NCBI GenBank assembly: GCA_004299275.1
Contig: SCSU01000052.1
Span: 1 to 51,014, forward strand
Direction: 5' to 3'
Length of the DNA: 51,014 nt
DNA from: Patescibacteria group bacterium
GTDB taxonomy: Bacteria; Patescibacteriota; Patescibacteriia; 2-12-FULL-57-11
Made by a program: the position numbers and the translations under genes. This document shows, one piece after another, positions 32,407 through 46,713 of this stretch. Each line of letters begins with the position of its first letter. Positions within the stretch are counted from its first letter, which is position 1. The notes under the pieces are model-generated. The model was given only the letters and a program-made list of their open reading frames with translations, was not told the origin of the DNA and did no database searches.

Positions 32407-32838
32407 ATGCCCCATCCCATCAGCATTCCGCTTTTTTTCCGCCAGGCGGCCGCCTACGCCGCGGTCGGATTTTTTTCCATGCTGGCTGATGTCTTTTTTT
32501 TCGGTTGGCTGACTTTCGGTCTAAAAGTACATTATCTGGCCGCCAACCTTTTTTCGTTTATCGTCATCGGCTCGCTGAATTTTTTGGCCAACCGCCGTTT
32601 TACTTTTAACCATCGCGGCGTTCCCGGGGTTTCGCAATACCTGAAATTTTTCGCGGTGGTGGGTATCGGCCTGTTGCTCAACACCGCCCTGCTCGCTTTT
32701 TTTGTGGAAATAATTTCTCTCCACAAAATTCTGGCCAAACTTTTCGCGGCTGCGGTCACTTTTTTTTGGAACTTCGGCATGAATCGTTTTTGGACCTTTG
32801 CGGCAGCTCCCCGAAGAGCCGAGCAGGAGATTGTTTAG
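32407..32838 (+). CDS. GtrA family protein (lipid-linked sugar flippase-like)
   Basis: 4 TM segments, NFLANRRFTF, WNFGMNRFWTF. Confidence 0.88.
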   Translation: MPHPISIPLFFRQAAAYAAVGFFSMLADVFFFGWLTFGLKVHYLAANLFSFIVIGSLNFLANRRFTFNHRGVPGVSQYLKFFAVVGIGLLLNTALLAFFVEIISLHKILAKLFAAAVTFFWNFGMNRFWTFAAAPRRAEQEIV

Positions 32839-32886
32839 CGTTTATTTTTTTGGTATAGTGGGTCGAGAAATCCAGGACGGGTTATG

Positions 32887-33032
32887 CCCGGCAGTGAAAC
32901 GCCGACAGCGGGCTGGACACAGACCTTGAGGGTCTGTAAAAACGGACCTTCAAGGTCTGGGCTAAAATTGTAAACAATATTCGCTCGTCGAACCCCGCCA
33001 AGCGGGGTTCGAGTCGGCGTTCTACTGCCGGG
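32887..33032 (+). mobile_element. Non-autonomous TIR-bounded structured element (MITE-like or cis-RNA), copy 1
   Basis: cccggcagtgaaacgccgac ... gtcggcgttctactgccggg termini; internal cgaaccccgc/gcggggttcg hairpin; homologous copy at 46464-46673. Confidence 0.65.
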
Positions 33033-33033
33033 T

Positions 33034-34050
33034 ATGCCTACTACTCCAATTTTCGGAAAAAAGAACGTGCTTGTGACCGGTGGCGCCGGTTTTATCGGCT
33101 CGCACCTTTGCGAGCGCCTGCTTAAGGAAGCCAAGGTCATCTGTCTGGACAATTTTGTCAATTCCAACGTCCGTAACATCGAGCACTTGCTCCAGCTCCC
33201 GGACTTTGAGTTTATCCGCGCCGACATCAATCAGCCGATAGATTTGGATTCTTTTAAGGAGCTCGAAAAGTTTAAAGTTAAGTTTCAAGGAGTGCAGGAA
33301 ATTTATCATCTGGCCTGCCCGACCTCCATTAAAAATTTTGAGGAGTTTAAGATTGAGACGCTCCAAGCCAGCTCTGTCGGCATGTGCAATGTTCTGGAAT
33401 TGGCGGTCAAACACAAAGCGAAATTGCTTTTCACTTCAAGTTCGGTGGTTTACGGCGGTCGGCGGGCGAACGACAAATATTTCCGCGAGGAGGACATCGG
33501 TCTCGTGGACCAGCTCTCGCCGCGCGCCTGTTACGACGAAGGCAAGCGCTTTGGAGAGACGATGGTGGAGACCTACCGGCAAACGCACGGCCTGGACGCC
33601 AAAATTGCGCGCGTTTTTCGCACCTACGGCCCACGCCAACGGCTGTTTGACGGCGAGATGGTGCCGGACTTCATTACCAACGCCATTGACGGCAAAGATT
33701 TGGTAATTTACGGGGACGAAAATTTCCGCACTTCACTTGTATATGTTTCCGATTTGGTGGATGGGCTTATAAAGCTCATGAAGGCGCAACGGAATATCGG
33801 GCCGGTGAATTTGGGGGCGGACAGCGACGTCAAAATTATGGAAGTGGCGGAGATGATTGTGAAGTTATTGGGTTCAAAATCAAAAATAGTTTTTGAACCG
33901 TCGCTCCTGTTCTTGACCGAACTCGGTGTTCCGGATATCCGCAAGGCCAAGGAATTTTTGGGCTGGCTGCCGCTCGTGCGACTCCAAGACGGGCTCAAAA
34001 AGGGGATAGATTACGCCCAGGCGCAAAAGACATTGGTGGGGATTGGTTAA
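33034..34050 (+). CDS. UDP-glucuronate decarboxylase (UDP-xylose synthase)-like epimerase/dehydratase
   Basis: TGGAGFIGSHLC, IYHLACPTS, PRACYDEGKR, TYGPR, YVSDLVDGL. Confidence 0.85.
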   Translation: MPTTPIFGKKNVLVTGGAGFIGSHLCERLLKEAKVICLDNFVNSNVRNIEHLLQLPDFEFIRADINQPIDLDSFKELEKFKVKFQGVQEIYHLACPTSIKNFEEFKIETLQASSVGMCNVLELAVKHKAKLLFTSSSVVYGGRRANDKYFREEDIGLVDQLSPRACYDEGKRFGETMVETYRQTHGLDAKIARVFRTYGPRQRLFDGEMVPDFITNAIDGKDLVIYGDENFRTSLVYVSDLVDGLIKLMKAQRNIGPVNLGADSDVKIMEVAEMIVKLLGSKSKIVFEPSLLFLTELGVPDIRKAKEFLGWLPLVRLQDGLKKGIDYAQAQKTLVGIG

Positions 34051-34051
34051 T

Positions 34052-34717
34052 ATGAAAGTCATTGCCGTCATACCCGCTTGGAATGAGGAGCGGACCATTC
34101 GCGAGGTGGTCCGTTCTGTTTCTGCTTACGCTCTGCCGCTCGTCGTGGACGACGGTTCTGCCGACCGGACCGCCGAACTGGCGCTTGCGGCCGGTGCGCG
34201 CATGGTCCGGCACGCGGTCAACCGCGGGCTCGGCGCGGCGCTCGGCACCGGGCTCAAGGCAGCGCTCATGCTCGGCGCGGAGATAATTTTCACTTTTGAC
34301 GCCGACGGCCAGCACGATGCGGCGGATATCCCAGCGGTGCTCGCGCCAATCCGCGAGAGGCGGGCGGACGCGGTTATCGGCAGCCGTCTGCTCGCGCCGC
34401 AAGGCATGCCCTGGATTCGGCACATCGCCAATAAGCTGGGAAATCTTGCCACCCTCGCGCTTTTCGGCGCGCGGGTCAGCGATTCGCAATCCGGTTTCCG
34501 CGCTTTTTCGCGGCTGGCGGCCGAGGGGTTGACTATCCGCACCGACGGCATGGAGGTCTCGTCGGAAATCGCGGCGCAGATTCGCGAGAACGGCTGTCGC
34601 TTGGTCGAAGTCCCCATCCGCGCGGTCTACACCGACTACTCGCTGTCCAAGGGTCAAAGTTTTTTCGTGGGATTGTGGACACTGGGGAAATTATTTATTC
34701 ATCGAGTACGGCGCTGA
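34052..34717 (+). CDS. Glycosyltransferase family 2 (DPM1-like polyprenol-phosphate sugar synthase)
   Basis: IPAWNEE, VDDGSAD, NRGLG, FDADGQH, DSQSGFRA, EVPI; followed by DUF2304. Confidence 0.9.
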   Translation: MKVIAVIPAWNEERTIREVVRSVSAYALPLVVDDGSADRTAELALAAGARMVRHAVNRGLGAALGTGLKAALMLGAEIIFTFDADGQHDAADIPAVLAPIRERRADAVIGSRLLAPQGMPWIRHIANKLGNLATLALFGARVSDSQSGFRAFSRLAAEGLTIRTDGMEVSSEIAAQIRENGCRLVEVPIRAVYTDYSLSKGQSFFVGLWTLGKLFIHRVRR

Positions 34718-34718
34718 T

Positions 34719-35093
34719 ATGAATTTTCTCCTCATTCAACTCCTAATCGTCTTGTTTGTTTCCTTCGCGGCCGTGGGCGTGGTGCGACGGTTTTTGCGCG
34801 GCGAGCTCCGGCGGGCAGCCGCGGCCGGCTGGCTCGCGCTTTGGGCCGCGGTCGCGGCGGCGGTTTTGGCGCCCAAGACCACCGAACTTTTAGCCCGCCT
34901 CCTCGGCGTCGGGCGGGGAGTGGACGTGGTGCTTTATCTCTCGGTGGTGGGTCTTTTTTATCTGCAATTTAGAACCATGCTTCGGTTGGAAAAGATGGAC
35001 CGCGCGATTACGGCCGCGGTCCGCGCCGCCGCGCTCGGTGATCTGGCTCGCGAACAGCCCGAAATCAAACCTAGCGCTCATTCGCGCGAATGA
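34719..35093 (+). CDS. DUF2304 family membrane protein
   Basis: LARLLGVGRGVDVVLY motif, 3 TM segments, coiled C-terminus, adjacent to a DPM1-like GT2. Confidence 0.8.
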   Translation: MNFLLIQLLIVLFVSFAAVGVVRRFLRGELRRAAAAGWLALWAAVAAAVLAPKTTELLARLLGVGRGVDVVLYLSVVGLFYLQFRTMLRLEKMDRAITAAVRAAALGDLAREQPEIKPSAHSRE

Positions 35094-35447
35094 GCGAATG
35101 ACATGCGCGGGGGGTCTTGACAGGGCGCGAAGGTTCCGGTTGGGGTATGTTAGAGACATATGGATGTGAATAAATGGGAGCGTCTCTATAAGGCCCTGGC
35201 TAATAAAAGGCGGCTGGGCATCATTAGTTCCCTGTCGCGTCATCGGGAGCTTAGCGTCGCCGAGATTTCCGAACAATTGCATCTATCCTTCAAGGCGACC
35301 TCAAAACATTTAAACATCTTGAAAACAGAGGATCTTGTGCAAAATGAACAAAGGAGTCGGCAGGTTTTTTATTGGCTGGGTCCTGACCAACCACCGGCGG
35401 TGCGATGTTACCTCGACGACAATCTAGCGCACATTCGCGCGAATGAG
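35071..35447. repeat. 24-bp direct repeats (palindrome family B core CATTCGCGCGAATG) bracketing the ArsR gene
   Basis: ctagcgctcattcgcgcgaatgag (35071-35094) and ctagcgcacattcgcgcgaatgag (35424-35447), 1 mismatch. Confidence 0.85.
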
Positions 35448-35468
35448 GGTAAGGCGAAGAAGGGATGA
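35160..35468 (+). CDS. ArsR/SmtB family winged-helix transcriptional regulator
   Basis: KALANKRRLGII, ELSVAEISEQLHLSFKATSKHLNILK, QVFYWL. Confidence 0.85.
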   Translation: MDVNKWERLYKALANKRRLGIISSLSRHRELSVAEISEQLHLSFKATSKHLNILKTEDLVQNEQRSRQVFYWLGPDQPPAVRCYLDDNLAHIRANEGKAKKG

Positions 35469-36538
35469 ACAAAATCGCGGTCATAATCTTAAGCTACAAC
35501 CACGAGCAGTTTCTGCGCGATCTTTTCGCGTCCCTTGGCCGCCTGAGCTATCCGCGCGAGTCACTCAAAATTTTTTTCCTCGACAACGCCTCGGCCGACG
35601 GCTCGGCCGCGCTCGCCCCGAGACTCCTTGCAGAGTTAAATTTTGAGCATGAATTTATAGAAAAAAAGGAGAATCTCGGTTTTGCCGGCGGCAATAACCT
35701 CTGTATCCGCCGCGCGCTGGACGAGAGTTTTGATTTCGTCTATCTGCTGAATCCCGATACGGAAGTGGAACCAGATTTTTTGGAACGGGCGGCGGCCGCG
35801 ATGGGCGACACCAGCGTCGGCGCGGCGCAGTCGCTCTTGCTCATGGGCGACGACCATCAAGTTATTAATTCCGTCGGCAACGCTTTCCATTATCTTGGTT
35901 TCGGTTATTGCCTCGGCTATCGCGACCGGCGGGACTCGCCGGTCTACGCCCAACTCGCGTCAAAAATGCCGGAGATCACGTATGCCTCCGGCGCCGGCGT
36001 GCTTTTGCGTGCCGGGGCGCTCCGGCAAGTCGGGCTCTTTGACGAAACGCTTTTTGCCTATCACGAGGACGCCGATCTCTCGCTCCGGTTATTTTTGGCC
36101 GGCTGGCGGATAGTTCTCGCCCCGCGGTCGGTGGTTTATCATCACTACCAATTTTCGCGGAGCATTAAAAAATATTACTGGATGGAACGGAATCGCTTTA
36201 TTGTTCTTTGGAAATGCCTGCGGCTCCGGACCTTGTTGTTGGTTTTGCCGATGCAGCTCGTTCTCGAAGCCGGGTTGCTGCTTTTTTCTTTTCGTACCGG
36301 CTGGTGGCGGGAGAAGCTCCGCGCCTGCGTTTGGTTTTTGAACCCGCACAATCTCGCCGCGCTCTGGCGCAGCCGGCGGGCAATCCAAAAATCGCGCCGT
36401 TTGCCGGATCGCGAACTGGCGCGGCGCTTTACTTCGGTAATTTCCTATCAAGAAATTGACAACATTTTACTGCGGCGAATCGGCAACCCGCTCATGACCG
36501 CTTACTGGCGCGCGGTTCGGCCGCTGATTAGGTGGTAA
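35465..36538 (+). CDS. Glycosyltransferase family 2
   Basis: IILSYN, DNASADGS, NLGFAGGNN, LLNPDT, FAYHEDAD. Confidence 0.92.
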   Translation: MNKIAVIILSYNHEQFLRDLFASLGRLSYPRESLKIFFLDNASADGSAALAPRLLAELNFEHEFIEKKENLGFAGGNNLCIRRALDESFDFVYLLNPDTEVEPDFLERAAAAMGDTSVGAAQSLLLMGDDHQVINSVGNAFHYLGFGYCLGYRDRRDSPVYAQLASKMPEITYASGAGVLLRAGALRQVGLFDETLFAYHEDADLSLRLFLAGWRIVLAPRSVVYHHYQFSRSIKKYYWMERNRFIVLWKCLRLRTLLLVLPMQLVLEAGLLLFSFRTGWWREKLRACVWFLNPHNLAALWRSRRAIQKSRRLPDRELARRFTSVISYQEIDNILLRRIGNPLMTAYWRAVRPLIRW

Positions 36539-36545
36539 GTTGGTT

Positions 36546-36579
36546 CGAGATTGGATCTCTTGCAGGAGATCCAATCTCG
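36546..36579. repeat. Palindromic element family A, copy 2 (34 bp, intergenic between convergent genes)
   Basis: cgagattggatctcttgcaggagatccaatctcg. Confidence 0.9.
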
Positions 36580-36580
36580 C

Positions 36581-37903
36581 TCATACCCACCCAAGCATTA
36601 GCCCGTTCGCGGCGAAGGCCGCGCCGACGACTAGGGTATAGATTGTGAGCGCGCGGCGGAGGCGCGAGGGCAGAGTTGTATCAGTAATCTCTGCCGCGGT
36701 GATGAGAACAGCGAGCAGAACCGCCGACAGGATAAAAATCGGCTTGGCGTTGCCGCGTTCGAGCGAGCCAAAGCGGACAGTGTTCGCGATAAGCGCCGCG
36801 AGCGAACCGAGGAAAAATATAGCGAGCAAACCGTCGCCATCCGTCAGTTTTTTTCGCGCTCGAAGCAGAAAGCGCGCCAGGGCGAAAAGAAAGACGGGCG
36901 CGAGCGCGGCGCCGAGCCATACCGCTCGCTGTGCCAACCGCAGCCTTGGCGAAAGCTGGCGCTGCGCCAACCGCAGCCTTGGCGAAGGTTGGTCAGGATT
37001 TTTAAGCAAGTCGTCGTAGTCAGTAACAGTCGCGGCAAACACGACCGACCAAAATGAGTTGGAACCTGCGGGCCAAAAGGGCGAGAAGAAAATGTTGCTG
37101 TCCAGGGTCGTAAAAAAATTCGGCGGCAGGATACCCGGTGCTTTTTTTGCCTCAAAGGTGTTCGTAAACGGGCCGCCGAATTGCTTGGCGCTTGTCACAA
37201 GCCAAGGCGAGGCGATGGCGAGCGCTGTCACTGCTAAGAGCAGAGTGGAAATCAATAGTTTGCCAAGATTGGATCTCCTCGGGAGATCCAATCTTGAGGC
37301 AAAACGATAAATCTGCCAAACGACGATGGAAAAAAGGCCGAGGAAGGCCGTGACTTTGGTGAGGAGCGCGAGGCCGATAATTACTCCCGCGGCCAAGGCC
37401 GAGCTTTTTTTGTCTGGGTCTTTTTGATTGGCAGCGTAAAATAGAGCCAAGAGCAGCAAGAGATGCGCCAGTCCTTCGTTAGAAAAAAATGTTGAGGCGG
37501 TCAGCGCCACCGGCAGAGCGGCAGTGAGGAGAAGTGTGAGCGCCGGAGCCGCCGCTTGTTTGGTTCTCTTAAAACTCCACCAGCCGAGCAGGAAAAATGT
37601 CAGCAAGCCGAACGCCGCCGGCAGATAGGGGAGCGTTTTTTTCGCGGCCTCTGCGCCACCGCTCAGAGTTATTATTGGCGCGGCGATGGCGTAAAAAAGC
37701 GGCTCATGCCAAGCCACGTAAGTTTCCTCAAGCGTCGGCAGGCGCCCGGCGGTTGCCAGTATTTCGGCATAACGGAGATGCGCCCCGCCGTCATAGCCCC
37801 AGTAAGGGTTCCAGACCGAGGCGTTATGGAGACGCAGGAAGATGCCAGCCGCGAGTGCGGCGGCGGCCAAGCCCCACCAAAACCATTTTTGCCATGAAGC
37901 CAT
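36581..37903 (-). CDS. GT-C fold (ArnT/PMT-like) polytopic membrane glycosyltransferase
   Basis: GYDGGAHLRY first-loop acidic motif, HEPLFY, SNE, GLALLTK; about 10 hydrophobic segments. Confidence 0.7.
   Translation of the reverse strand: MASWQKWFWWGLAAAALAAGIFLRLHNASVWNPYWGYDGGAHLRYAEILATAGRLPTLEETYVAWHEPLFYAIAAPIITLSGGAEAAKKTLPYLPAAFGLLTFFLLGWWSFKRTKQAAAPALTLLLTAALPVALTASTFFSNEGLAHLLLLLALFYAANQKDPDKKSSALAAGVIIGLALLTKVTAFLGLFSIVVWQIYRFASRLDLPRRSNLGKLLISTLLLAVTALAIASPWLVTSAKQFGGPFTNTFEAKKAPGILPPNFFTTLDSNIFFSPFWPAGSNSFWSVVFAATVTDYDDLLKNPDQPSPRLRLAQRQLSPRLRLAQRAVWLGAALAPVFLFALARFLLRARKKLTDGDGLLAIFFLGSLAALIANTVRFGSLERGNAKPIFILSAVLLAVLITAAEITDTTLPSRLRRALTIYTLVVGAAFAANGLMLGWV
36927..36992. repeat. 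Tandem 2 x 33-bp in-frame hairpin element (family D)
   Basis: cgctgtgccaaccgcagccttggcgaaagctgg / cgctgcgccaaccgcagccttggcgaaggttgg; encodes QPSPRLRLAQR-QLSPRLRLAQR. Confidence 0.88.
37264..37296. repeat. Palindromic element family A, copy 3 (33 bp, in frame in CDS)
   Basis: caagattggatctcctcgggagatccaatcttg; translated within SRLDLPRRSNLG. Confidence 0.9.
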
Positions 37904-37930
37904 ACGAAAGGTAATGTATCGTAATTGGTG

Positions 37931-37979
37931 AGTAGTTAGTAGTAGGTAGTACGTAGAACATAGTACGTAGAACGTAGAC
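37931..37979. repeat. Degenerate heptamer tandem array (7 x NNTAGWN) in a divergent intergenic region
   Basis: agtagtt agtagta ggtagta cgtagaa catagta cgtagaa cgtagac. Confidence 0.7.
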
Positions 37980-37999
37980 TATAAAACACAGCAGATGGT

Positions 38000-39112
38000 A
38001 TGAAGATTGCCGTTGTTGTCACCACTTTTCCGCCTTATCACGGCGGGATGGGGAATGTTGCGGAAGCACAGGGGCGTCTGCTGGTCCAGGCCGGGCACGA
38101 GGTGACGGTTTTCACAACCGTCGCCGGCGCGGCGGCAGGCGGCTACGTTTTGCGGCGCCTGCGGCCGCTCCTCCGCATCGGGAACGGTGCCCTGATACCG
38201 CAGCTTTTTTGGCGGCTCCGCGGGTTTGACGCCGTCCTGCTCCACTGGCCGGCTTTCGGGTTGCTTGAGGCCGCACTGGTCTGGCGCGCGATTTTTGGCC
38301 ACCGCAGCCGTTTTTTTGTTTATTATCACATGGATGCGGCGGCCGCCGGCGTTCGCGGTTTAATCTTTGCCCTCTACAACCGGATGCTGCTGCCGCTCCT
38401 TTTACGCGCCGCCGACCTAATTTTGGTATCCTCGCGCGACTACGCGGCCCAAGGGTTGCTCGGAAAAGCGCCGGAGGCGGTGCGCCAAAAAATTCGCGAA
38501 ATTCCGCTCGCGGTGGACACGGAATTTTTTTCTCCCGGCGGCTGCGGCTCCGGGGAGCGCGAGCATTTTGGATTGGCTGAAAAAAATATTTTATTTGTCG
38601 GCGGCATGGACCGCGCTCACGATTTTAAGGGTGTGCCGATTCTGCTTAGCGCTTTCGCCGCCGCGGCTATCCCCGACGCGCGAGTGCACTTGGTTGGAGA
38701 CGGCGAACTTCGGGAGTCATATGAACGACAAGCTCAGGAGTTGGGACTCGCGACAGCGGCGCGTTTCCACGGCCGGCTCAAGCGGGATGAGCTCCTGACG
38801 CTTTATCGCTGTTCTGGCCTCCTGGTCTTGCCATCGCTAAATCAGTCCGAGGCCTTTGGTCTAACACTTTTGGAAGCAATGGCCGCGGGCAAACCGGTGA
38901 TTGCCTCTAATCTTCCCGGCGTGCGCACCGTGGTTACGGACGATGTCGGCTGGCTCGCGCCACCGGGCGATACGCTGGCCTTAGCTCGCCTCTTGGAGGA
39001 AGTTTGGCGCGCTCCGGAACGGCTTTTGGCCAAAGGCCAGGCCGCGCGACGGCGAGTTTTGGAAAATTACAGTTTAGAATGTCTGCGGCGGGTGTTACGC
39101 GAAATTATATGA
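38000..39112 (+). CDS. Glycosyltransferase family 4
   Basis: FPPYHGG, LFVGG...KG, EAFGLTLLEAMAAGKPVIAS. Confidence 0.92.
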   Translation: MKIAVVVTTFPPYHGGMGNVAEAQGRLLVQAGHEVTVFTTVAGAAAGGYVLRRLRPLLRIGNGALIPQLFWRLRGFDAVLLHWPAFGLLEAALVWRAIFGHRSRFFVYYHMDAAAAGVRGLIFALYNRMLLPLLLRAADLILVSSRDYAAQGLLGKAPEAVRQKIREIPLAVDTEFFSPGGCGSGEREHFGLAEKNILFVGGMDRAHDFKGVPILLSAFAAAAIPDARVHLVGDGELRESYERQAQELGLATAARFHGRLKRDELLTLYRCSGLLVLPSLNQSEAFGLTLLEAMAAGKPVIASNLPGVRTVVTDDVGWLAPPGDTLALARLLEEVWRAPERLLAKGQAARRRVLENYSLECLRRVLREII

Positions 39113-40296
39113 AGTTACTTGTCGTCTCTTCGCTCTGGCCGCCGGCCGGCGGCGGGGCGGAAATTGTCGCGCGCCGCACCGCTCGTCTCCTCGCCGCGAG
39201 GGGAGACGAGGTTATTGTGGTTAGGAGCGCTCGGCCGGACGAACCAAGGTATCGAGAGCAAGATGAAGAGGGAATGAAGGTTATTTGTTACCGACCTTGG
39301 AATGTTGGAACCGTTTTTAATTTATCAAAATTTGGTTTACCGCGCCGAACGCTCTGGCACATGCTCGACGCCACCAATTTTTTAAGCGCCAAGATTTTCC
39401 GCCGGATTTTGGAAAAAGAACGGCCGGATGCCGTGATCTCCCACGGACTTAAAGGTCTGGGTTACCTTCTACCCCGCACCGCCAAAAAATTCGGCACCAA
39501 GACGATTCACGTGCTCCACGACGTCCAGTTGATTGAACCATCGGGTATTGCCGAGCTTGATGTTGTGCCGACCGCGAGCAGGCGACTGTGGAGCGCCTAT
39601 ACCCGCAAACTTTTCGGCTCGCCCGACGCGGTGCTCTTTCCCTCTCATTGGCTTATGGAACTTTCAAAAAAGTGGGGATTTTTTCCAGAATCATCCTGCC
39701 GTGTGGTTAGAAATCCGGTTGAGAGCGTGACGAGGTCAGACCTCCTCGGGAGGTCTGACCTCGTGCCAGCGGCTCGCTCGCGTACAGCCCGCACGCTTCT
39801 TTTCCTCGGACAGCTTGAGCGTCACAAAGGAATCCGCGAACTGCTCCAGGCGGCGCGGGTAATTTCCTCCGACTATCGTCTGCTCGTCGTCGGTGACGGC
39901 GCGCTCGCGGATTTGGTAAGAGCGGAAGCCGCGCGCAATCCGCGCGTGAGCTATCTGGGCCGGCGCGAGGGAGCGGCGCTCGAGGAAGTTTGGACTGAGA
40001 CAGATTTAGTCATCGTGCCTTCCATTTGCGCCGAAAACGCGCCCAACGTGATTCAGGAAGCCGCGAACCGCGGCTTGCCGGTTATCGCCAGCCGCACGGG
40101 CGGCATTCCGGAGCTCGTTAAAGAAGGGGAGACCGGCATCTTGGTGCCGCCAGGCGACGTTTCTGTTTTGAGTCAGGCGATTGAGGCGCAATTAGGGAAA
40201 ACAGTGAATGACGAAATGAGGCAAGCGATGAGCGATCTGGCGCGGAGCTGGAGCAGTGAGCTGTTTCTTGGCGAATTAAAGGCCGTAATTGCCTAA
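39109..40296 (+). CDS. Glycosyltransferase family 4
   Basis: GGAE, FLGQLERHKG, ENAPNVIQEA..GLPVIASRTGGIPE; ATG 39109 overlaps the upstream stop. Confidence 0.9.
   Translation: MKLLVVSSLWPPAGGGAEIVARRTARLLAARGDEVIVVRSARPDEPRYREQDEEGMKVICYRPWNVGTVFNLSKFGLPRRTLWHMLDATNFLSAKIFRRILEKERPDAVISHGLKGLGYLLPRTAKKFGTKTIHVLHDVQLIEPSGIAELDVVPTASRRLWSAYTRKLFGSPDAVLFPSHWLMELSKKWGFFPESSCRVVRNPVESVTRSDLLGRSDLVPAARSRTARTLLFLGQLERHKGIRELLQAARVISSDYRLLVVGDGALADLVRAEAARNPRVSYLGRREGAALEEVWTETDLVIVPSICAENAPNVIQEAANRGLPVIASRTGGIPELVKEGETGILVPPGDVSVLSQAIEAQLGKTVNDEMRQAMSDLARSWSSELFLGELKAVIA
39731..39763. repeat. Palindromic element family A variant, copy 4 (33 bp, in frame in GT4)
   Basis: cgaggtcagacctcctcgggaggtctgacctcg; translated within TRSDLLGRSDLV in the interdomain linker. 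Confidence 0.88.
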
Positions 40297-40298
40297 AT

Positions 40299-41114
40299 AT
40301 GAGAAAGTCGTGCCGGACGATGACTAATTGGTTGGCGCTCACTTTGCTTGGAGCGCTGGTTTTGACCGGTTGGGATTGTTCTGTTTCCCTGCCCCCAACC
40401 AATCAAGCGCACATTCGCGCGAATGTGCGCTTGAAGGAAGAAGTTTTGCCGCCTTACGCCAGCCGGCGTTTTTATACTATAGAGAATAATGAGACGGCGA
40501 ATTTTCTTGTCCTAAAAATTGAGCCGGCGCTTTGGTCCTGGGGTCTGGCGGAAGACCCGGCAAAACCCAAGTCCGTGGCCGCCTGGCGTGAGGCGAGCGG
40601 CGCGACAGCGGTTTTGAACGCTGCCTATTTTACCGAGAGCGGCGAGCCCAGCGGTTACTGGAAAAATACGCCGACAGTTCCCGTGAGCGCCATATCTTGG
40701 CCGAAGAAGGGGAGCGGTTACACCGGCACGGTGATGATTAAAGACGGCGCGCTCGCGCTCGCCTATCTTCCGTCAGACGCACCGGATCCGGCGAAATCTG
40801 ACGCGATTTTTCTCACCTTCCCGACGCTCATTGCCGACGGCCGGCCGCTGGTGGAAAAAGAAACCGGTCTCAAAAGCCGGCGCACGGCTCTGGCTGAAGA
40901 CCAGAGCGGCACGGACTACATTATTATTACTGAGGAGGGAATTGTTTCGCTCCACCAGTTCTCCCGCTGGCTTTCCGAGCAACCGGAGCGTTTTACGCGC
41001 GCCGTAAATCTGGACGGCGGGCCGTCAACCGGCCTGTCGCTCAAGGACGGCGGAGAGGCGCTGGAAATACCTTCCGCGCCAGTGCCGAATGTGCTCCTCT
41101 TGCGACGAAGGTAG
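40299..41114 (+). CDS. Phosphodiester glycosidase (NAGPA-like) family exported protein
   Basis: Signal/lipoprotein-like N-terminus, LNAAYF, RRTALA, AVNLDGGPST. Confidence 0.8.
   Translation: MRKSCRTMTNWLALTLLGALVLTGWDCSVSLPPTNQAHIRANVRLKEEVLPPYASRRFYTIENNETANFLVLKIEPALWSWGLAEDPAKPKSVAAWREASGATAVLNAAYFTESGEPSGYWKNTPTVPVSAISWPKKGSGYTGTVMIKDGALALAYLPSDAPDPAKSDAIFLTFPTLIADGRPLVEKETGLKSRRTALAEDQSGTDYIIITEEGIVSLHQFSRWLSEQPERFTRAVNLDGGPSTGLSLKDGGEALEIPSAPVPNVLLLRRR
40403..40434. repeat. Palindrome family B, full 32-bp copy inside CDS
   Basis: tcaagcgcacattcgcgcgaatgtgcgcttga (QAHIRANVRL). Confidence 0.88.
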
Positions 41115-41115
41115 T

Positions 41116-41256
41116 CCCTCGACCTGCCTACTCCGCCAGTTGGCGGATTCGGCAGGCAGGCAAGCTCGGGAACTATAATGAACCCAACCACGCCCCGACG
41201 TAACGTCGGGGCGGTATTCGGGCGAACGTAATAAAGTCTCCGAGTGTAATCGAGGG
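41116..41256. repeat. Composite nested hairpin repeat cluster
   Basis: Outer ccctcga..ctcggg / ccgag..tcgaggg arms enclosing cctgcct..aggcagg (itself enclosing tccgccagttggcgga) and ccccgacgtaacgtcgggg. Confidence 0.7.
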
Positions 41257-41291
41257 GCCGCCTTTTATTTTCCTTCGTTTGATTTCCTCCG

Positions 41292-41320
41292 TTGCCCTGG
41301 TCAGGTTCGTGTGATATAAA
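41292..41320 (+). promoter_or_regulatory. Putative extended -10 sigma70 promoter (TTGCCC-N17-TATAAA, TG motif); strong SD AGGAGG before ATG 41359
   Basis: Direct sequence match; ggcaggaggaggatgaaATG. Confidence 0.55.
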
Positions 41321-41358
41321 TTTCGCGCTCGTTAGATGACGGGCAGGAGGAGGATGAA

Positions 41359-42381
41359 ATGAGGAGTCGGCAGTCAGCCGAGACAGCCGGAAAGCTGGCG
41401 CTTCGGCGCATCGAGGAGCTGGACAGCGACCCGCGGGAAAGACTCGGCGAGTTGAGCCGCTACCTGCGGCACTTCCGCGGCTATCCGATTCTCCGCGAGC
41501 AGGCGGATTTCGACGCGCTCCACCGGCAATACCGGTTGGCCAAGGGTGAGCAAAAGACGCGTGCCCGCGACTTGCTGGTCTACGGCAACATCCGGCTCGT
41601 GGTCTGGGTGGCGCGGCGCTACGTTGGGCGAGGTGTGCCGCTCTCTGACCTGCTACAGGAGGGCGTGCTCGGAGTGATGCGAGCGATTGACCTCTTTGAT
41701 CAGTCGCGAGGCACGCGTTTCAGCTCCTATGCCGTGTCGAGCATCCGTCGGCGCATCCGTCGGGTGATTGAAGACGCCAACGAGCGCGGCGCCTTCCGGA
41801 TTCCGAAACATTTGCAGACGAAGATGCGTCAGATTTCGCAGGTGGAAAACCATCTGACGAAAATCCTCGGCCGCCCGGCCACGAATCGCGAGATCCTCGA
41901 CCGCTTGGGTGAATCGCCGGCAAAGACCGCGCTGACGGTGCGGATTGCCGACATTCTTTACTACCAGCGGCGGTGGAAACGCGGCAACGGCAAACAGTCG
42001 CTGGACGCGCCGCTCCTCGCGGAAGGGCTCGATACGCGCACGCTCCATGACGTGGTCGGTGACCTCGGGAAGAATACCGAGGTTCTTCTCGAGGCGCAGA
42101 TGCTCCTCGAAAATCACGAACGCGCGCTCGAGAATCTGGTGCGGAGCGCGGCGCGGGTAAACGCCCGCGACGGGATGCTCCTGAGCAAACGGTTGGGGCT
42201 CGGCAATTTCGAGTCAGCAACGCTCAAGGAGACCGGCGCGGAGGTCGGGGTATCGCGCGAGCGGATTCGGCAGATCGAACGGTGCGCGGCGGCTCGAGTT
42301 GGGCTGACCGTGAGTGAGCTCTGGGAAATCGTCGCCGCGCGCGAACGGCTGGTGAAGCTCGTCTCACTGCTCGCCGGTTAA
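41359..42381 (+). CDS. Divergent RpoD-like sigma-70 family factor
   Basis: Region 1.2-like YLRHFRGYPIL; region 2 NIRLVVWVARRY..RG..DLLQEG.LG.MRAIDLFD.SRG.RFSSYA; region 3 SLDAPL; region 4 TLKETG..VGVSRERIRQIE. Confidence 0.88.
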   Translation: MRSRQSAETAGKLALRRIEELDSDPRERLGELSRYLRHFRGYPILREQADFDALHRQYRLAKGEQKTRARDLLVYGNIRLVVWVARRYVGRGVPLSDLLQEGVLGVMRAIDLFDQSRGTRFSSYAVSSIRRRIRRVIEDANERGAFRIPKHLQTKMRQISQVENHLTKILGRPATNREILDRLGESPAKTALTVRIADILYYQRRWKRGNGKQSLDAPLLAEGLDTRTLHDVVGDLGKNTEVLLEAQMLLENHERALENLVRSAARVNARDGMLLSKRLGLGNFESATLKETGAEVGVSRERIRQIERCAAARVGLTVSELWEIVAARERLVKLVSLLAG

Positions 42382-42406
42382 GAGCGACGCCTGTCGCTCT
42401 TTTTTT
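42380..42406 (+). terminator. Rho-independent terminator
   Basis: aagagcgac-gcct-gtcgctctt hairpin running into a T7 tract right after the stop. Confidence 0.8.
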
Positions 42407-42478
42407 GTTGGACAACGGCGGCCAGAAGTTGTAGCGTAGCGGCGGGTTCTTTACCGACGACCCGGGAAGGAGGATTCA

Positions 42479-43900
42479 ATGGAGGTTTTTTGCCAGATCG
42501 CCGAAGGCGATGTGTCCGAGGATTTCTGCAGCCGCGAACAGGGGAAACCGGAGTGTCAGGGGTGCGTGGCGCCGACTCGTCGTTGTACGGCCTGCAAAAA
42601 ATCCGGCCACCTGGTTGAGCCGCGCCTGGGGCTCTGCGCCGTCTGTCAGCGGGCGAAGGGCAACGGAACAGTAGAGCAGCGCCGGAGCGTGGAGCACCTC
42701 CTCGAGGAACGAACGGCAGCCTTGCGCAAGATTTCGTCTTCGCGCCGGTTCTCGGCCGCCGCTGAACCCGTAGTTGCGCCAGAACCGGCAACCATCGGTT
42801 CGTCAGTCATCGAGGCGATTGATGGGCTGAGTGATCGCAAACGGGAGGTGCTCCGGCTGCTGCTCGGACTGGACGGCGGCGGCGTCCGCACACTGCCGGA
42901 GACGGCCGAAAAGCTTGGCGTCTCCCCGCGCGCGATTTACATGGCGAAGTACGAAGCCGTTAGTTTGCTCCGCGGCCGCGTCTCGGAGCAGGAGCTCGAG
43001 GCGATCAGGCGTTCTATCCCGCGGGGCAAGCGGGAGCGGAGGCGGGCGGTTCCAGCGCCGCCGCCTATGAGCGCCAGTCCGGTCCAAGAGCCAGTTCCGG
43101 TATCGGTTCCGCTCGCTGACGGAGTTGTCGCCATTTCTCAATCGTCAGCGATGCCAGCGGCGGCGAAAGCAACGAAGGCGACTTTGTCGCCGGCGGCGAG
43201 TAAGCCGGAACGCGGACCAAAGGCGGCCGACGCCGCGGCGAAACCGTTGCGAGAGGGCAGAGGGACCGTTTCCCGTTTGCGCGCCAACGACTTGTCCGCG
43301 GCGGTCATCAAGGCGATAGGTCGGTTGCCGGAATTGCAGGCGCGGATTATTCGTCTGCGTCTCGGGATCGGCATTGCCCGGAAGCGTTACCTCCACGAGA
43401 TTGCCAAGGAACTGTGTGTCTCCGAACGCACAGTTCTTCATCACCAGGAGCGGGCGACCGTTGCTCTGCGTCAGTTGCTCACGGACGACGCTTACGCGCG
43501 CGTGTTTAGGATCCTGCGCAGCAGACCGGATCGGCACGAAGCCGGTCGCCGGAGAAGTCACGGGGTCGCCACGAGCGCTCGCCGCGCTGACCAAAACACC
43601 CGGTTTTTCTCCGACGATGATAGGCAGGCGATGCAGAAGCTGCTTTCCCTGCCTGACGCGGGGAAGGGAGAGGTTTTCACTGATCAACGGAGTGAGTCTT
43701 TCGGTTCGGCCGCCGCGATCAGCCGACTGCTCCAGGTTGACCCGCGTCGCCTCAAGTCGTTCCTCACCGTCCACAAGCGCCGCATCCGCCTGCGTTCCGC
43801 GCGGAACGCCAAGGGGGAGACGATACTCTGTTGGTCGTTCACGGATATACAGGGGATCCTCACCTCGTGGATCAGGGCGCAGTTGGCGAAGTCCTCTTAG
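42479..43900 (+). CDS. Uncharacterised protein: 8-Cys Zn-binding N-terminus + two sigma-70 region 4 HTH domains + possible C-terminal HTH
   Basis: C5,C17,CxxC,CxxC,CxxC; LSDRKREVLRLLLGLDGGGVRTLPETAEKLGVS; LPELQARIIRLRLGIG...LHEIAKELCVSERTV; SD gaaggagg upstream. Confidence 0.75.
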   Translation: MEVFCQIAEGDVSEDFCSREQGKPECQGCVAPTRRCTACKKSGHLVEPRLGLCAVCQRAKGNGTVEQRRSVEHLLEERTAALRKISSSRRFSAAAEPVVAPEPATIGSSVIEAIDGLSDRKREVLRLLLGLDGGGVRTLPETAEKLGVSPRAIYMAKYEAVSLLRGRVSEQELEAIRRSIPRGKRERRRAVPAPPPMSASPVQEPVPVSVPLADGVVAISQSSAMPAAAKATKATLSPAASKPERGPKAADAAAKPLREGRGTVSRLRANDLSAAVIKAIGRLPELQARIIRLRLGIGIARKRYLHEIAKELCVSERTVLHHQERATVALRQLLTDDAYARVFRILRSRPDRHEAGRRRSHGVATSARRADQNTRFFSDDDRQAMQKLLSLPDAGKGEVFTDQRSESFGSAAAISRLLQVDPRRLKSFLTVHKRRIRLRSARNAKGETILCWSFTDIQGILTSWIRAQLAKSS

Positions 43901-43905
43901 TTCAC

Positions 43906-43940
43906 CGCAGGCGGCGCAGACGCGCAACCTGCGTTTTTTT
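43906..43940 (+). terminator. Putative Rho-independent terminator
   Basis: cgcagg...cctgcg stem followed by T7. Confidence 0.6.
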
Positions 43941-44023
43941 ATTTTTAAGTCATCCGCGTTTTTTGGCGGAGTCAAATTTTTTCCAGCTATTCTTTACTCA
44001 CTATCCTGCCTTTGGCGGGACCC

Positions 44024-44046
44024 CGCCCCGACGTAACGTCGGGGTG
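44024..44046. repeat. ccccgacgtaacgtcgggg palindrome, second copy (first at 41191-41213)
   Basis: Identical 19-bp core on both sides of the sigma island. Confidence 0.85.
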
Positions 44047-44062
44047 GCTCACGACCAACGAC

Positions 44063-44131
44063 TCACCTTCGATATTCAAAAATCATCACTTTGCCGCCGG
44101 CGATCGGCCAAACCGCGTCGGCGGTTTTTTG
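44063..44131 (-). pseudogene. Diverged duplicate of the last 23 codons of the 44280-46409 gene
   Basis: QKTADAVWPIAGGKVMIFEYRR* versus QKTADSFWSIASGKVMIFEYRR*; 10 mismatches in 69 nt by manual alignment. Confidence 0.8.
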
Positions 44132-44204
44132 CCCGCGCCAGTGCCGAATGTGCTCATATTAAAAAAAGTGAGTCGTGAGTTGTGAGTCGCGGGTAGTTTT
44201 TTCT

Positions 44205-44240
44205 CTCCGCCAAAAAACGCTATAGCATTTTTTGGCGGAG
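44205..44240. repeat. Hairpin ctccgccaaaaaa...ttttttggcggag flanked by inverted heptamer arrays
   Basis: 13-bp stem; gtgagtcgtga (44168) is complementary to tcacgactcac (44273). Confidence 0.65.
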
Positions 44241-44279
44241 TCGAATTTTTTCCACTACACACTACTCTCTATTCACGAC

Positions 44280-46409
44280 TCACCTTCGGTATTCAAATAT
44301 CATCACCTTGCCGCTGGCGATTGACCAAAAGCTGTCGGCGGTTTTTTGCGCTTCGGCATCGAGTTGCGGAAAGCGTTTCCAGTAGTCGTGGAGCATCAGG
44401 TAAACCGTATCCACGCCGTAATCGTCCAGCACTTTTTGCATCAGCTCGCGCGTCGGACCATTGTATGTCGCCTCGAGATAGTAGCCGTAAAGCTTGAGAC
44501 TGCCAGATGGGTGTGAGTAATAGAATTCGTCTTTAACGTAGCGGGAAAAACCGTAGCGCCAGATTTCCGCCGCCGCCGCGGTTTGGTTGGCGAGAACAAC
44601 ATAACTGCCGCTTGCCCGTGTGTGGAGGAAATCCACGGCTTCCACGGTCGCCGCGGAAACGCTCCGGTTGCCGGTTTTTTCTTCCGGGTCAACTCGGGGA
44701 TAGGCCAGATAGACTGCGGCGGGGACGGCGAGCGACAAGGCCAGCGCGAGAGCCAGACGGCGGTAGGGAGTTCGCAAAAATTTTTCGGCAATGAGGATTG
44801 CTCCCGAGAGAGCGAGAGGAAAAAGGAAGATTCCGGCGAGGCCGACAAAGCGGACGGGGAAAATCGCTTGTTCATAACCGATAATGCCCGGGAGTTTGAC
44901 GGCAGCGGCAAGCAGGAAGCCGCCCGCCGCGGTCGCGAGCGCGCCGGCGATGAAGACGCCGGCTAGCCGACGTTCACCCTGCTTCTTTCGGAGCGCGAAA
45001 AGTAAGGCGAGCAGCAGCACGATTAGCGGCAAATAAGTCCGCGCTGAATAGATGAGCGTGCGTCCGGGAGAAAAGGTGCGCAAGGTTGGCGCCGGAAAGA
45101 CGGTTTGCGCGAGCTGGGTGAGCCGTTCGCGGCCGCCTTGGAGCGAGAGCGCTGGCGCGAGGCGGCTTTGGGAGAAAAAGGCCGCGGTGGGGAAGATGAG
45201 CAATGCCGCGAGGCAGGTGGTAACGAATCCTCGGCGGAGCCGAGGATTTTTTACGCGCGCTCGGGAGTAGGCGAGCGCGAGCAGGAGCAAGGCGGGAACG
45301 CCGGCGAGTGGATGGACGGCGAGCGCGGCTAGCGCGGCGGCAAGAGGTAAGAGCCAGCGTTCTTTTTGCTGGATGGCGCGGAAGGCAAAAACCGCCGCAA
45401 GCAGGGCGAGGGCATTGGCGATGCCTTGCGGCGTGGTAGCGATAAAGTCTGCAAGCGGTCCGAAGGCGGCCAATAAAATTGCCAAGGGGAGAGAGGTGGT
45501 AAGTAGAGCGGCAGAGACGAGCGCGAGCCAGCCGACAGCCGGACCGGCAAAACGATTGACCTCATGGAGCGGCAGAGCGGTCAGCCGCGAGAACGACACT
45601 AAATCAACATAGGCGCCGATGTAGTAGGGTGTTTTGGGAAGCACGGCGCCGTTCGCGGCAATCTCGCGCATGGCCGCCTCGTGGATAAAGGGGTCAAAGC
45701 CGTAGCCGATTTTATAAATCGCGGCGCCGGCAAAAAGTCCGAGACCGAGAGTGAATGCGGCGAGAATGGCGGCGAGCCGCCGTTCGGTGAGTTTTGTTCC
45801 GAGGGTGACAGCGGCAAAGACAGCCAAGCCGAGGAGCGGCAAAAATCGCGGCGAGACAACTTCCCATGGCGTGCGGATGGCTTCGACTGTTCCCGAGTTA
45901 AAAAGAATTACGGCCGCTAAAACGAGTGAGGTTAAACCAATAAGAGCGACAAGCAATTCAAGTTTCGAGGTCCCGAGTTTCGAGATTGGATCTCCCCCGC
46001 CTACGCTAAAGCTTCCTCCTTCGCTTGCGCTACGGCGGACAGGTCGGCGGGCAGGCGTGGAGATCCAATCTCGTCCAGCTGCACCCCAAGCAAAAAAACC
46101 GGCAACCGCGCCGAGCGCGAGTAAGGCGACGATTGCGAACAAATTCCATTGCCAGAGGTAATAGACAGCCGTGGCGGCAATGGTCCACGAGGCGACGACC
46201 AAGAGCGCGCCGCGAATAACCAAGGTCAGACCTCCTGCAGGAGGTCTGACCTTGGACGCCACCGCGCTGGAAAGCAAAAACCCGTACAAAAGCATTGCCG
46301 GCACTCCCAAAAAAGGCGTATGAAACACAGCGGCATTCAAGGCCAGAGCGGCTACCGCGAGCGCCACCCCCATGCTATAGTGTTTGCGATTAAGGCGCAG
46401 AAATTTCAT
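44280..46409 (-). CDS. Large polytopic membrane protein, probable GT-C fold
   Basis: 709 aa, many hydrophobic segments, GYGFDPFIH loop motif, soluble C-terminal domain; carries two in-frame repeat insertions. Confidence 0.6.
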   Translation of the reverse strand: MKFLRLNRKHYSMGVALAVAALALNAAVFHTPFLGVPAMLLYGFLLSSAVASKVRPPAGGLTLVIRGALLVVASWTIAATAVYYLWQWNLFAIVALLALGAVAGFFAWGAAGRDWISTPARRPVRRSASEGGSFSVGGGDPISKLGTSKLELLVALIGLTSLVLAAVILFNSGTVEAIRTPWEVVSPRFLPLLGLAVFAAVTLGTKLTERRLAAILAAFTLGLGLFAGAAIYKIGYGFDPFIHEAAMREIAANGAVLPKTPYYIGAYVDLVSFSRLTALPLHEVNRFAGPAVGWLALVSAALLTTSLPLAILLAAFGPLADFIATTPQGIANALALLAAVFAFRAIQQKERWLLPLAAALAALAVHPLAGVPALLLLALAYSRARVKNPRLRRGFVTTCLAALLIFPTAAFFSQSRLAPALSLQGGRERLTQLAQTVFPAPTLRTFSPGRTLIYSARTYLPLIVLLLALLFALRKKQGERRLAGVFIAGALATAAGGFLLAAAVKLPGIIGYEQAIFPVRFVGLAGIFLFPLALSGAILIAEKFLRTPYRRLALALALSLAVPAAVYLAYPRVDPEEKTGNRSVSAATVEAVDFLHTRASGSYVVLANQTAAAAEIWRYGFSRYVKDEFYYSHPSGSLKLYGYYLEATYNGPTRELMQKVLDDYGVDTVYLMLHDYWKRFPQLDAEAQKTADSFWSIASGKVMIFEYRR
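45981..46073. repeat. Triple-nested in-frame repeat (family A 33 bp containing family D 30 bp containing family D 30 bp)
   Basis: cgagattggatctcc[cccgcctacgctaaagcttc[ctccttcgcttgcgctacggcggacaggtc]ggcgggcagg]cgt ggagatccaatctcg = 93 bp. Confidence 0.85.
46220..46255. repeat. Palindromic element family A variant (36-bp perfect palindrome, in frame)
   Basis: ccaaggtcagacctcctgcaggaggtctgaccttgg (SKVRPPAGGLTLV). Confidence 0.88.
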
Positions 46410-46463
46410 AAATAATATACCTTCGGCATTGTAGCACGAGCGCGTTTAATTTATGGTGTGTGG

Positions 46464-46673
46464 CCCGGCAGTGAAACGCCGACAGTTTAGTAAACGTCAT
46501 CTCGACCAGCGTGGAGAGAACTTCAATTCGGCGATGACGATTGAGAATTGAAGATCCCTCGGCTTCGCTCGGGATGACAGTAAAGTCTAGAATCCAACCT
46601 AATATAGTAAAAACGAATGTTCGCTGGCTGAACCCCACCTGGCGGGGTTCGGAGTCAGCGTTCTACTGCCGGG
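46464..46673 (+). mobile_element. Non-autonomous TIR-bounded structured element, copy 2, carrying a REP-like insert
   Basis: Same termini and inner gaacccc/ggggttc hairpin as 32887-33032. Confidence 0.65.
46496..46578. repeat. REP/REPIN-like element family C (GTCAT...ATGAC), copy 1
   Basis: gtcatctcgacc..gtggagagaacttcaattc...gaattgaagatccctcggcttcgctcgggatgac. Confidence 0.85.
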
Positions 46674-46713
46674 TGGGTGATAGGGAATAGGGGATAGAGT
46701 AAATAAACAATGT

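Follow-up and report, generated by a model that had tools for sequence, protein, structure and literature searches.

Two short blocks of sequence with shared inverted ends, each standing in front of a glycan gene, raise the question of whether they are mobile elements or structured RNAs. They lie in a stretch of 51,014 nucleotides from a Patescibacteria group bacterium (NCBI GenBank assembly GCA_004299275.1, contig SCSU01000052.1, positions 1 to 51,014 of the forward strand), which as a whole is referred to as the window and represents contig C67 of a 1.0-Mb, 73-contig genome (G000) with 56.7% G+C. The original prediction, made from the letters, had named both an undescribed MITE (miniature inverted-repeat transposable element) and a structured cis-acting or non-coding RNA. 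Since the same ends bracket a nuclease gene in other genomes and related ends do so on contig C62 of the same genome, we consider it likely that the window elements are MITEs of a tiny GIY-YIG mobile element family, the full form of which comprises ~290-320 bp with two ~20-bp ends and the gene of a ~90-residue nuclease. The elements insert with a short, mostly 4-bp duplication, overwhelmingly on (T)ATG start codons and co-oriented with the host gene. Afterwards an ATG of the host stands on both sides of the element, the downstream one keeping the host gene intact and the upstream one heading the element. In coding copies, the upstream ATG is fused to the nuclease in frame or opens a short frame that ends at the nuclease ATG.

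Copy 1 is a gene-less type A element of 146 nt (32887-33032, + strand) and copy 2 a gene-less type C element of 210 nt (46464-46673, + strand), both delimited by direct reading and pattern search. Their left end, CCCGGCAGTGAAACGCCGAC, comprises 20 nt and is identical in the two copies (in copy 1 at 32887-32906, + strand, an exact 20-mer of the GTGAAAC type). The right ends read GTCGGCGTTCTACTGCCGGG and GTCAGCGTTCTACTGCCGGG (in copy 1 at 33013-33032, + strand, GTTCTAC type) and, when reverse-complemented, show 2 and 3 differences to the left end, respectively. Searching the window for this end with up to 3 mismatches yields 4 matches at an expectation of 0.01, and none of 100 shuffles gave 4. 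Copy 1 is framed by directly read TATG tetranucleotides on the + strand: the upstream one (32883-32886) contains the host-derived start codon that now heads the element (ATG#1, 32884-32886), and the downstream one (33033-33036) contains the start of an NAD-dependent epimerase/dehydratase gene (33034-34050; Pfam Epimerase, E 1.8e-43), the ATG of which (33034-33036) lies 1 nt beyond the element. Inside, a REP-like palindrome doublet termed module A (32920-32959, + strand; 18-bp stem by folding) is followed by the conserved scaffold (32976-33010, + strand; alignment A1), which consists of the motif AATATTCGCT (AATRTTCGCT type, 32976-32985) and the hairpin GAACCCCGC...GCGGGGTTC (GAACCCC/GGGGTTC, 32990-33010).

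Copy 2 lies between two TGG triplets (46461-46463 and 46674-46676, + strand), a weak flank repeat of 3 nt only. It contains a nested fold-back repeat of family C, CGTCATCTCGACC...CTCGGGATGAC (46495-46578, + strand), and the hairpin GAACCCCAC...GCGGGGTTC (46630-46650, + strand; direct reading and folding), and ends 40 nt ahead of the ATG at 46714 that opens a PMT_2 glycosyltransferase gene (Pfam, E 7e-07). Copy 1 is a start-codon insertion with an empty site in relatives and copy 2 an off-target copy, and both carry nested repeats. In this anatomy the original prediction is borne out: coordinates, shared left end and right ends, motif and hairpin, flanks (TATG/TATG and TGG/TGG), and the glycan nature of the downstream genes were all recovered, as were the two interiors, for which we measured 40 nt (palindrome) and 84 nt (family C unit).

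The same prediction had spoken of a two-copy element, which is wrong. The genome-wide search for the termini that had been proposed with it gave 39 end matches at up to 3 mismatches and 0 for a reversed pattern as control. These correspond to 22 complete elements plus ends cut by contig breaks, ~30 copies in all, with a canonical length of 146-149 nt. Common to all copies are the 20-bp terminal stem, the motif GCTAATAAT..AAAGAATGTTCGCT, and the GAACCCCGC/GCGGGGTTC hairpin before the right arm (alignment A1). The middle part occurs in four forms, namely the palindrome of copy 1 (A), an unrelated and more diverged 50 nt (B), the family C fold-back of copy 2 (C), and an insert within the 3' hairpin (D). 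The type A palindrome is found free-standing at more than 20 other loci of the genome and brackets a Y1 (IS200/RAYT-like) transposase gene on contig C45; it is therefore a REP-type repeat in its own right. Family C is represented by 51 long copies in the genome. Judged from the sequences, the differing interiors are best read as other hairpin repeats of this genome, which is rich in repeats, that were later nested in, or replaced, the interior of the scaffold. The notion of a swappable cargo thus holds, the interiors being nested repeats of other families. At positions 10/11 of the terminal stem, both window copies carry a G-T plus an A-C pair. This asymmetry had been put forward as a feature kept by the two copies; it is present in both, but it is also kept in 19 of the 22 complete copies and is therefore a family trait rather than special to the window pair.

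Placement relative to genes is the most conspicuous property of the family. Gene-side (right) ends number 30. Behind 22 of them stands T or C and then the ATG of a co-oriented open reading frame (ORF), and 1 abuts a tandem copy; the upstream flank is (T)ATG in most copies. Host genes assigned by Pfam include secA, glyA (SHMT), clpP, methionine aminopeptidase (map), valS, ribonucleotide reductase, the window epimerase, xseA, holB, a type II/IV secretion ATPase, VKOR, a LOG-like protein, and an ORF of 3,082 codons with a T4SS_pilin match within its first 330 residues. One further host ORF (MPKRTYQPKKRH...) we take, by eye alone, to be rpmH. In the host proteins, Pfam domains start within residues 1-20 (SecA_DEAD and SHMT, for instance, from residue 4), and the downstream ATG is therefore the true start. 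Of the non-intragenic TATG sites in the genome, 357 of 938 are start codons; relative to this baseline, which is rough because it rests on crude ORF calling, at least 22 of 29 copies would fall on starts with P = 3.9e-5, and the placement is therefore not due to chance. Moreover, CC follows TATG in 9 of the 22 start-sited copies versus 63 of 548 ATG-start genes genome-wide, which hints that the target resembles the donor junction.

The start context of this genome is itself unusual. In the same crude gene call, ATG-start genes have T at position -1 in 357 of 548 cases and C in a further 17%, and Shine-Dalgarno-like motifs are rare ahead of TATG starts and commoner ahead of other ATG starts. 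Leaderless mRNA was considered as a general explanation and rejected, as only a weak and broad enrichment of a -10-like motif at constant spacing from TATG starts was seen. No sigma-70-like site was found in 32600-33200 with an E. coli-type consensus, which may not be that of the host.

Comparison with relatives reveals the empty site. Five relatives of the same family possess epimerase orthologues that are 67-72% identical and align from residue 1. In all five, the orthologous start is a bare tATGCC with the same GtrA-like gene upstream and nothing between. This base-by-base comparison, which the original prediction had suggested, covers the one epimerase locus; orthologues of the gene after copy 2 are 38-40% identical, too far for a comparison at base level. 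By end pattern, the element was not found in the six other genomes of the family, bar two 2-mismatch strays in G006, and a covariance model detected it in none of these six; the order as sampled consists of the same seven genomes. The model (R1) was built from 12 copies and gives copy 1 a score of 155 bits, copy 1 being one of its training sequences; run on 150 further genomes of the class, it detects the element in 6. Contigs of three DNA runs over 30500-50400 contained repeat-induced joints and breaks at the elements and no clean empty-site joint, rare variants being invisible in such data. The exact ends had at least 103 matches in public genome contigs, all single and chance-like and in unrelated high-GC phyla, and 11 loci in a metagenome collection, none of them with a right-end partner.

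Within the class, the family extends much further. Of 400 other sampled genomes, 18 contain the exact 14-nt ends (CCCGGTAGTRRAAC), across many families. In these copies, the outer 14 nt are conserved together with the GA/AG asymmetry of positions 10-11, and the inner stem varies from genome to genome in parallel, compensated fashion (GCCGAC, TTTGAC, TTCGAC, TTCGAT). Of 30 complete copies in other genomes, 21 are flanked by identical 4-nt sequences, most commonly TATG and further CAGG, CTTA, CACG, CAAG, TCAA, and ATGA; identity at such varied sequences identifies a true 4-bp duplication with a preference for TATG. Among the copies of at least 100 nt, 14 of 20 are followed by an ATG and an ORF of more than 100 codons, and the N-termini of these ORFs read, by eye, like those of dnaA, efp, murA, rpsB, scpB, and parA, which we presume them to be. 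Three copies form a tandem array. Short derivatives were also seen. A 71-nt miniature with CACG/CACG flanks (L227, G131:C1:56416-56486) lies inside a gene reading like pheT, and with its 4-nt duplication adds 75 nt, i.e. an insertion in frame. Three copies of 31 nt in G055 (L224-L226; C1:84000-84030, C1:102089-102119, and C4:73715-73745) comprise nothing but a pair of 14-nt arms around a 3-nt loop; each is flanked by CTTA/CTTA (on the other strand TAAG) and lies within a larger AAGCTATAAGC-type repeat.

An autonomous copy enclosing a transposase had been proposed as a further check. No transposase-sized gene was present between ends among the pairs listed from 401 class genomes, all of which are 31-317 nt apart; in other genomes, however, the same ends enclose a nuclease gene. 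Copies of 312-317 nt with exact 14-nt ends (L229, L233) sit on start codons and contain a single ORF of 89-99 residues that runs from left to right and encodes a GIY-YIG nuclease (PF01541, E 2e-15). An alignment of 6 nuclease sequences shows no variation at the catalytic-core columns Y, Y-I-G, R, H, and E. Among proteins of solved structure, SLX1 (E 2.7e-4) and UPF0213 BH0048 (E 3.6e-3) are nearest in sequence, and NCBIfam gave no family for the nuclease. Of 7 coding elements with GTGAAA-type ends, 6 have the left end 5' of the nuclease gene (L256 is reversed). As the GA/AG asymmetry distinguishes left from right, the ends are oriented, as the original prediction had proposed.

The association of this nuclease with start codons recurs across the phylum. 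Homologues at E <=1e-12 are present in 173 of 401 genomes sampled across it, often several in each. CC-initial inverted ends enclose 20 of the 30 best nuclease loci and fall into the subfamilies CCCGGTAGTGAAA.., CCCCGTAGAGAAA.., and CCCAGTAATACAAC..; the other 10 loci have different ends or none that were detected. All end subfamilies share an internal mismatch 9-11 nt from the tips, and the nuclease ATG follows about 25-30 nt after the tip of the element. Among the 20 CC-ended loci, 14 have an ATG in both flanks, 3 upstream only, and 3 none. In 10 of the 14 loci with both, the downstream ATG could be shown to open an ORF, one of which begins MPELPEVE and is presumably fpg. An open, in-frame connection from the upstream ATG to the nuclease exists in 7 of 19 cases, and three of these seven nucleases lack an ATG of their own; in the remaining cases the upstream ATG opens a frame of a few codons that stops beside the nuclease ATG.

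Six nuclease homologues are encoded in the genome of the window, three of them nested beside tRNA genes and one flanked by family C. The best one (58% identity) resides in a coding element of 289 nt at C62:12527-12815 with the layout TATG[CCCGGTGCGACAAC...GTTGTAGCACCGGG]TATG, in context caccTATG[CCCGGTGCGACAACTTCGAG ... CTCGAAGTTGTAGCACCGGG]TATGtcc. Its nuclease frame is continuous with the upstream ATG (MPGATTSSVFFVYVLES...) and ends in a stop codon within the right arm. The second ATG is the start of an ORF that we take, by eye, to be topA (MSKNLVIVESPTKAKTIARF...). At C15:23191-23441, a right end and TATG are followed in tandem by a 227-nt element with both ends of the right-end (AG) type. 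The copy at C15:23215 joins C62-like outer bases to scaffold-like inner bases; because its outer bases, CCCGGTGC, match the C62 coding element, the 227-nt element looks hybrid or rearranged.

Multiple copies, inverted ends, duplicated flanks, an empty site, and coding elements with the same ends elsewhere all favor the MITE option of the original prediction. Several observations nevertheless weigh against assigning the window copies to the GIY-YIG family and against start codons as its general target. First, the link to the coding form is confined to the ends: the window MITEs share only the terminal 14-22 nt with the coding elements and hold no remnant of a nuclease gene, this assembly contains no coding copy with the exact ends of the window, CCCGG[CT]AGTGAAACGCCGAC, and the left end of the C62 element, the sole coding relative here, agrees with that of the window at 11 of 20 positions by our own reading. 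Second, 7 of the 30 copies are off start codons (four at TAGG.. sites, two on contig C40, and window copy 2), as are 10 miniature copies of 31-71 nt in other genomes, which contain little beyond the two arms, and one copy in another genome (L209) sits on a start codon but is inverted relative to the gene. Third, the upstream ATG is dispensable to the host: ATG#1 is mutated in 3 start-sited copies (C8, C15:20165, and C39:8628, with the flanks TAAG, TCTG, and ATAA), whose host genes are therefore independent of it, and the frame that it opens varies from 9 to at least 50 codons and is unconserved. A conserved upstream peptide and a translational hop from ATG#1 to the second ATG were rejected on these two grounds. 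Fourth, the coding elements L254 (G681) and L255 (G629) are inserted one base further into the start, with the flanks TGG/TGG and TGT/TGT, and therefore rebuild no second ATG; their host genes may be disrupted or dependent on read-through from the upstream ATG.

The evidence for selection on the arms as a hairpin is likewise qualified. Over 22 copies, 410 of 418 stem cells pair, versus 393.9 +/- 2.1 with partners shuffled (0 of 2000 shuffles match), a control that retains the relatedness among the copies, so that the covariation does not prove selection for the hairpin. Compensated changes occur at positions 1, 6, 7, 8, and 19 of the terminal stem and in the scaffold hairpin, where one pair is GC in 8, CG in 2, and AU in 1 of the sequences (alignment A1). 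Parallel change of both ends between genomes is also usual for ordinary transposon ends. Single-side changes in the stem, counted by hand in 12 sequences, comprise 5 G-U versus 7 A-C/C-A cells and therefore give no sign of selection on one RNA strand. The covariation analysis proposed with the original prediction has in this way confirmed compensated stem changes and stopped short of a selected hairpin. A further objection concerns the enzyme: to our knowledge, no GIY-YIG protein performs strand transfer, these enzymes cut DNA and are not known to join it, and integration with a 4-bp duplication by the nuclease alone would be without known precedent.

How such an element could nevertheless live on start codons can be outlined. 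The nuclease gene may be too tightly packed between the arms for start signals of its own, and landing on a start codon would allow the element to borrow the transcription and translation start signals of its host for nuclease expression. The duplication would restore the host start. The nuclease might recognize the hairpin or cruciform formed by the two arms, to which the GA/AG mismatch at positions 10-11 would give polarity, and drive excision or insertion; in addition, the reaction may depend on host repair, on ligation, or on template switching at the short homology of the flanks. Gene-less copies, including those of the window, would have been moved in trans. For expression of the host gene, either ribosomes coming from the upstream ATG would unwind the terminal stem and initiate anew at the second ATG, or the stem would loop the insert out. 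An RNA-level effect on the downstream gene is possible because the element lies inside the leader. We know of no role of the GIY-YIG enzyme class in prokaryotic transposition. That the family represents the smallest self-contained class of DNA transposon (~280-320 bp), in which a nuclease acts on the hairpins of its own ends, the start codon is parasitized, and the duplicated ATG spares the host gene, is a proposal we put forward tentatively and hold at somewhat less than an even chance.

An explanation that retains the nuclease without transposition is that of a domesticated Ssn-like system, in which the repeats serve host GIY-YIG single-strand nucleases as binding and cutting sites, with a role in recombination or DNA uptake, and spread by recombination or template switching where short homologies exist. 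The published Ssn enzymes are, as far as described there, single-domain GIY-YIG nucleases flanked by oriented hairpin repeats present in hundreds of copies (PMC11893778). The six nuclease genes of this genome and the resemblance of new sites to the donor junction, as reflected in the excess of CC after TATG, would suit such a system. Precise inverted ends with identical 4-nt flanks of varied sequence, in contrast, look like insertion events, the presence of the coding unit on start codons of different genes in each genome is selfish behavior, and two decayed coding copies in G039 together with frequent stops and frameshifts among the coding relatives speak against a maintained host function. 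A domesticated role is possible for some of the nuclease genes, but it leaves the insertion signatures unexplained, and as an account of the family we regard it as unlikely.

Inverted ends and a 4-bp duplication are the textbook signature of DDE transposition. The elements could accordingly be ordinary MITEs of a classical DDE transposase that was not assembled, was lost, or is encoded on another replicon, with the GIY-YIG gene as a passenger; as the assembly consists of 73 contigs, many of them broken at these very repeats, such a partner could be missing from it. A search of the genome with PF00665, PF01609, PF13358, PF01385, and PF01548 returned one DDE_Tnp_1 gene, two weak rve-like matches that fall short of the Pfam cut-off, and no matches to DDE_3, OrfB_IS605, or IS110. 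The DDE_Tnp_1 candidate was rejected, as its inverted repeat ATAGGACCTACGCA is unrelated to the window ends, and so was one rve-like candidate, with a 37-nt inverted repeat beginning CAAGACCCGATC; at the second rve-like gene (L185), no bracketing repeat could be read. The two insertion sequences concerned are located at C52:14880-15890 and C5:11700-12980 (L186, L184), DDE_Tnp_1 with 14-nt and the rve-like gene with 37-nt ends. The two Y1_Tnp genes of the genome were rejected as TIRYT-like partners because they are bracketed by palindromes other than the scaffold ends, one of these palindromes being the cargo of copy 1. Against a DDE parent stand, besides the differing repeats, the lack of a transposase-sized gene between the listed end pairs of the class, noted above, and the fact that the ~90-residue nuclease is the only gene seen between ends and is so placed in 20 of the 30 best nuclease loci. 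We therefore consider a DDE origin very unlikely.

The second option of the original prediction, an RNA, finds no counterpart in known families: Rfam 15 gave 0 matches at gathering score in the whole window, the best sub-threshold match over the elements being istR with 20.6 bits at a cut-off of 45, and ARAGORN found no tRNA-like gene; a check for RNA data sets containing this stretch returned none. Although a position in the 5' leader with co-orientation in 22 of 30 cases, a very stable fold (-106.6 kcal/mol, z -11.9, for copy 1 with flanks), compensated changes in the terminal stem, and the contact of this stem with both ATGs would befit a host-selected leader RNA, whether cis-regulator or small RNA, that controls downstream translation and spread only secondarily, we find it unsupported as an origin and rate it very unlikely, since the downstream genes have no functional relation, the six family relatives lack the element, also at the orthologous epimerase site, the interiors are unconserved and differ wholly between copies and between genomes, copies also stand beside tRNA genes and in frame in the pheT-like gene, single-side stem changes show no strand bias, and a protein gene lies between the same ends elsewhere.

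A GIY-YIG micro-element with gene-less derivatives can be compared with several published systems. The closest one found are the single-strand-specific Ssn nucleases (clade CDD cd10448) with their NTS/SRM hairpin repeats, for which the authors themselves remark on an insertion-sequence-like repeat-gene-repeat layout (Chenal et al. 2025, Nat Commun, PMC11893778). From that account, both systems have as their sole protein a small single-domain GIY-YIG nuclease (here in the coding relatives, not in the window copies), and in both the gene stands between oriented repeats that can form hairpins and also occur dispersed over the genome (PMC11893778). In contrast to the layout described there, the ends found here are mutual inverted copies that bound a fixed unit of ~290-320 bp, and they come with duplicated 4-nt flanks, sites on start codons in gene direction, gene-less derivatives, and empty sites.

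Correia elements, which are MITEs of Neisseria, duplicate TA and are not known to be tied to a start codon. Our elements differ from them, as far as they are described, in targeting the start codon, in following the orientation of the gene, and in having a GIY-YIG parent without a transposase of known class. They resemble them in a size of ~100-150 nt, the lack of a gene, high copy number, inverted ends, a short duplication, location in leaders, and a long hairpin. Bacterial MITEs located in transcripts have been reviewed (Delihas 2011, PMC3184786), and they and the ATG-carrying REP2 repeats are functional look-alikes of our elements. The REP2 repeats of Neisseria and the IR repeats of Borrelia likewise lie directly upstream of many genes and supply or carry the ATG; REP2, however, is characterized in that source as lacking terminal inverted repeats and as possessing its own promoter and ribosome-binding site (PMC3184786), in contrast to our elements, in which no sigma-70-like promoter of E. 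coli-type consensus was found and the ATG derives from the duplicated host start. Finally, repetitive extragenic palindromes (REP) with their RAYT genes and the TIRYT system ("TIRtron") are, by the description available to us, dispersed palindromic or inverted repeats that bracket a mobilizing gene (Di Nocera et al. 2013, PMC3733652). This type accommodates the palindrome inside copy 1, which flanks a Y1 transposase gene, but not the scaffold ends: these flank neither of the two Y1 genes of the genome and elsewhere enclose a GIY-YIG gene instead of a tyrosine (HUH) transposase. Full-text literature searches, with subscription-only papers and supplements outside their coverage, returned no description of such an element, and the family looks undescribed in print and mechanistically unusual.

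Additional repeats and genes accompany the elements. The Y1 gene at C45:959-1701 (L031) encodes a transposase of 203 residues and is bracketed by ACAGACCTTCAAGGTC-type palindromes, one of which also lies in frame inside the gene itself (L031 1424-1441). At the second Y1 gene (C55:10054-10275, L032), the bracketing palindromes belong to another family, CGAGATTGGATCTCGCGAGATCCAATCTCG. Two family C repeats stand free in the window, outside the elements, at 48941-49022 and 49044-49125 (+ strand; blastn, 87% identity), and at C13:4963-5540 (L247) family C fold-backs flank a small GIY-YIG gene (C13:5118-5336) on both sides. The initial CGTCAT of family C is shared with the published Neisseria NTS repeat, which makes family C a possible hairpin partner of the C13 nuclease. 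Of the seven off-start copies, 4 are followed by TAGGG.AT. Short repeats of the GGGTATA or GGGGATAG type (e.g. gtgatagggaataggggatagag) surround off-start copies in the window (46677-46700) and at C27:10420-10455 and are also found downstream of elements on contigs C3, C28, and C56. Upstream of copy 2, an ORF of 708 residues (44280-46409, - strand) has no Pfam match at E <=0.001.

For the annotation of Patescibacteria, the family explains repeatedly mis-called starts, short phantom ORFs beginning MPGSET..., and contig breaks at gene starts. A single repeat family touches secA, glyA, clpP, map, valS, and ribonucleotide reductase and, by eye, probably also rpmH and topA. With a ~20-bp GC-rich stem set against each start codon, at least 21 genes, many of them essential, could share translational control, and how translation starts beside a 20-bp stem becomes a directly testable question. 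If the nuclease moves the elements, it would constitute a new enzyme class and set a new minimum size for DNA transposition, and it would provide a natural context for Ssn-type single-strand nucleases, which are already of biotechnological interest. For the organism, such movement would mean a way for a selfish element into the essential genes of a streamlined 1-Mb genome that leaves the cell alive, by landing on the start codon and rebuilding it.

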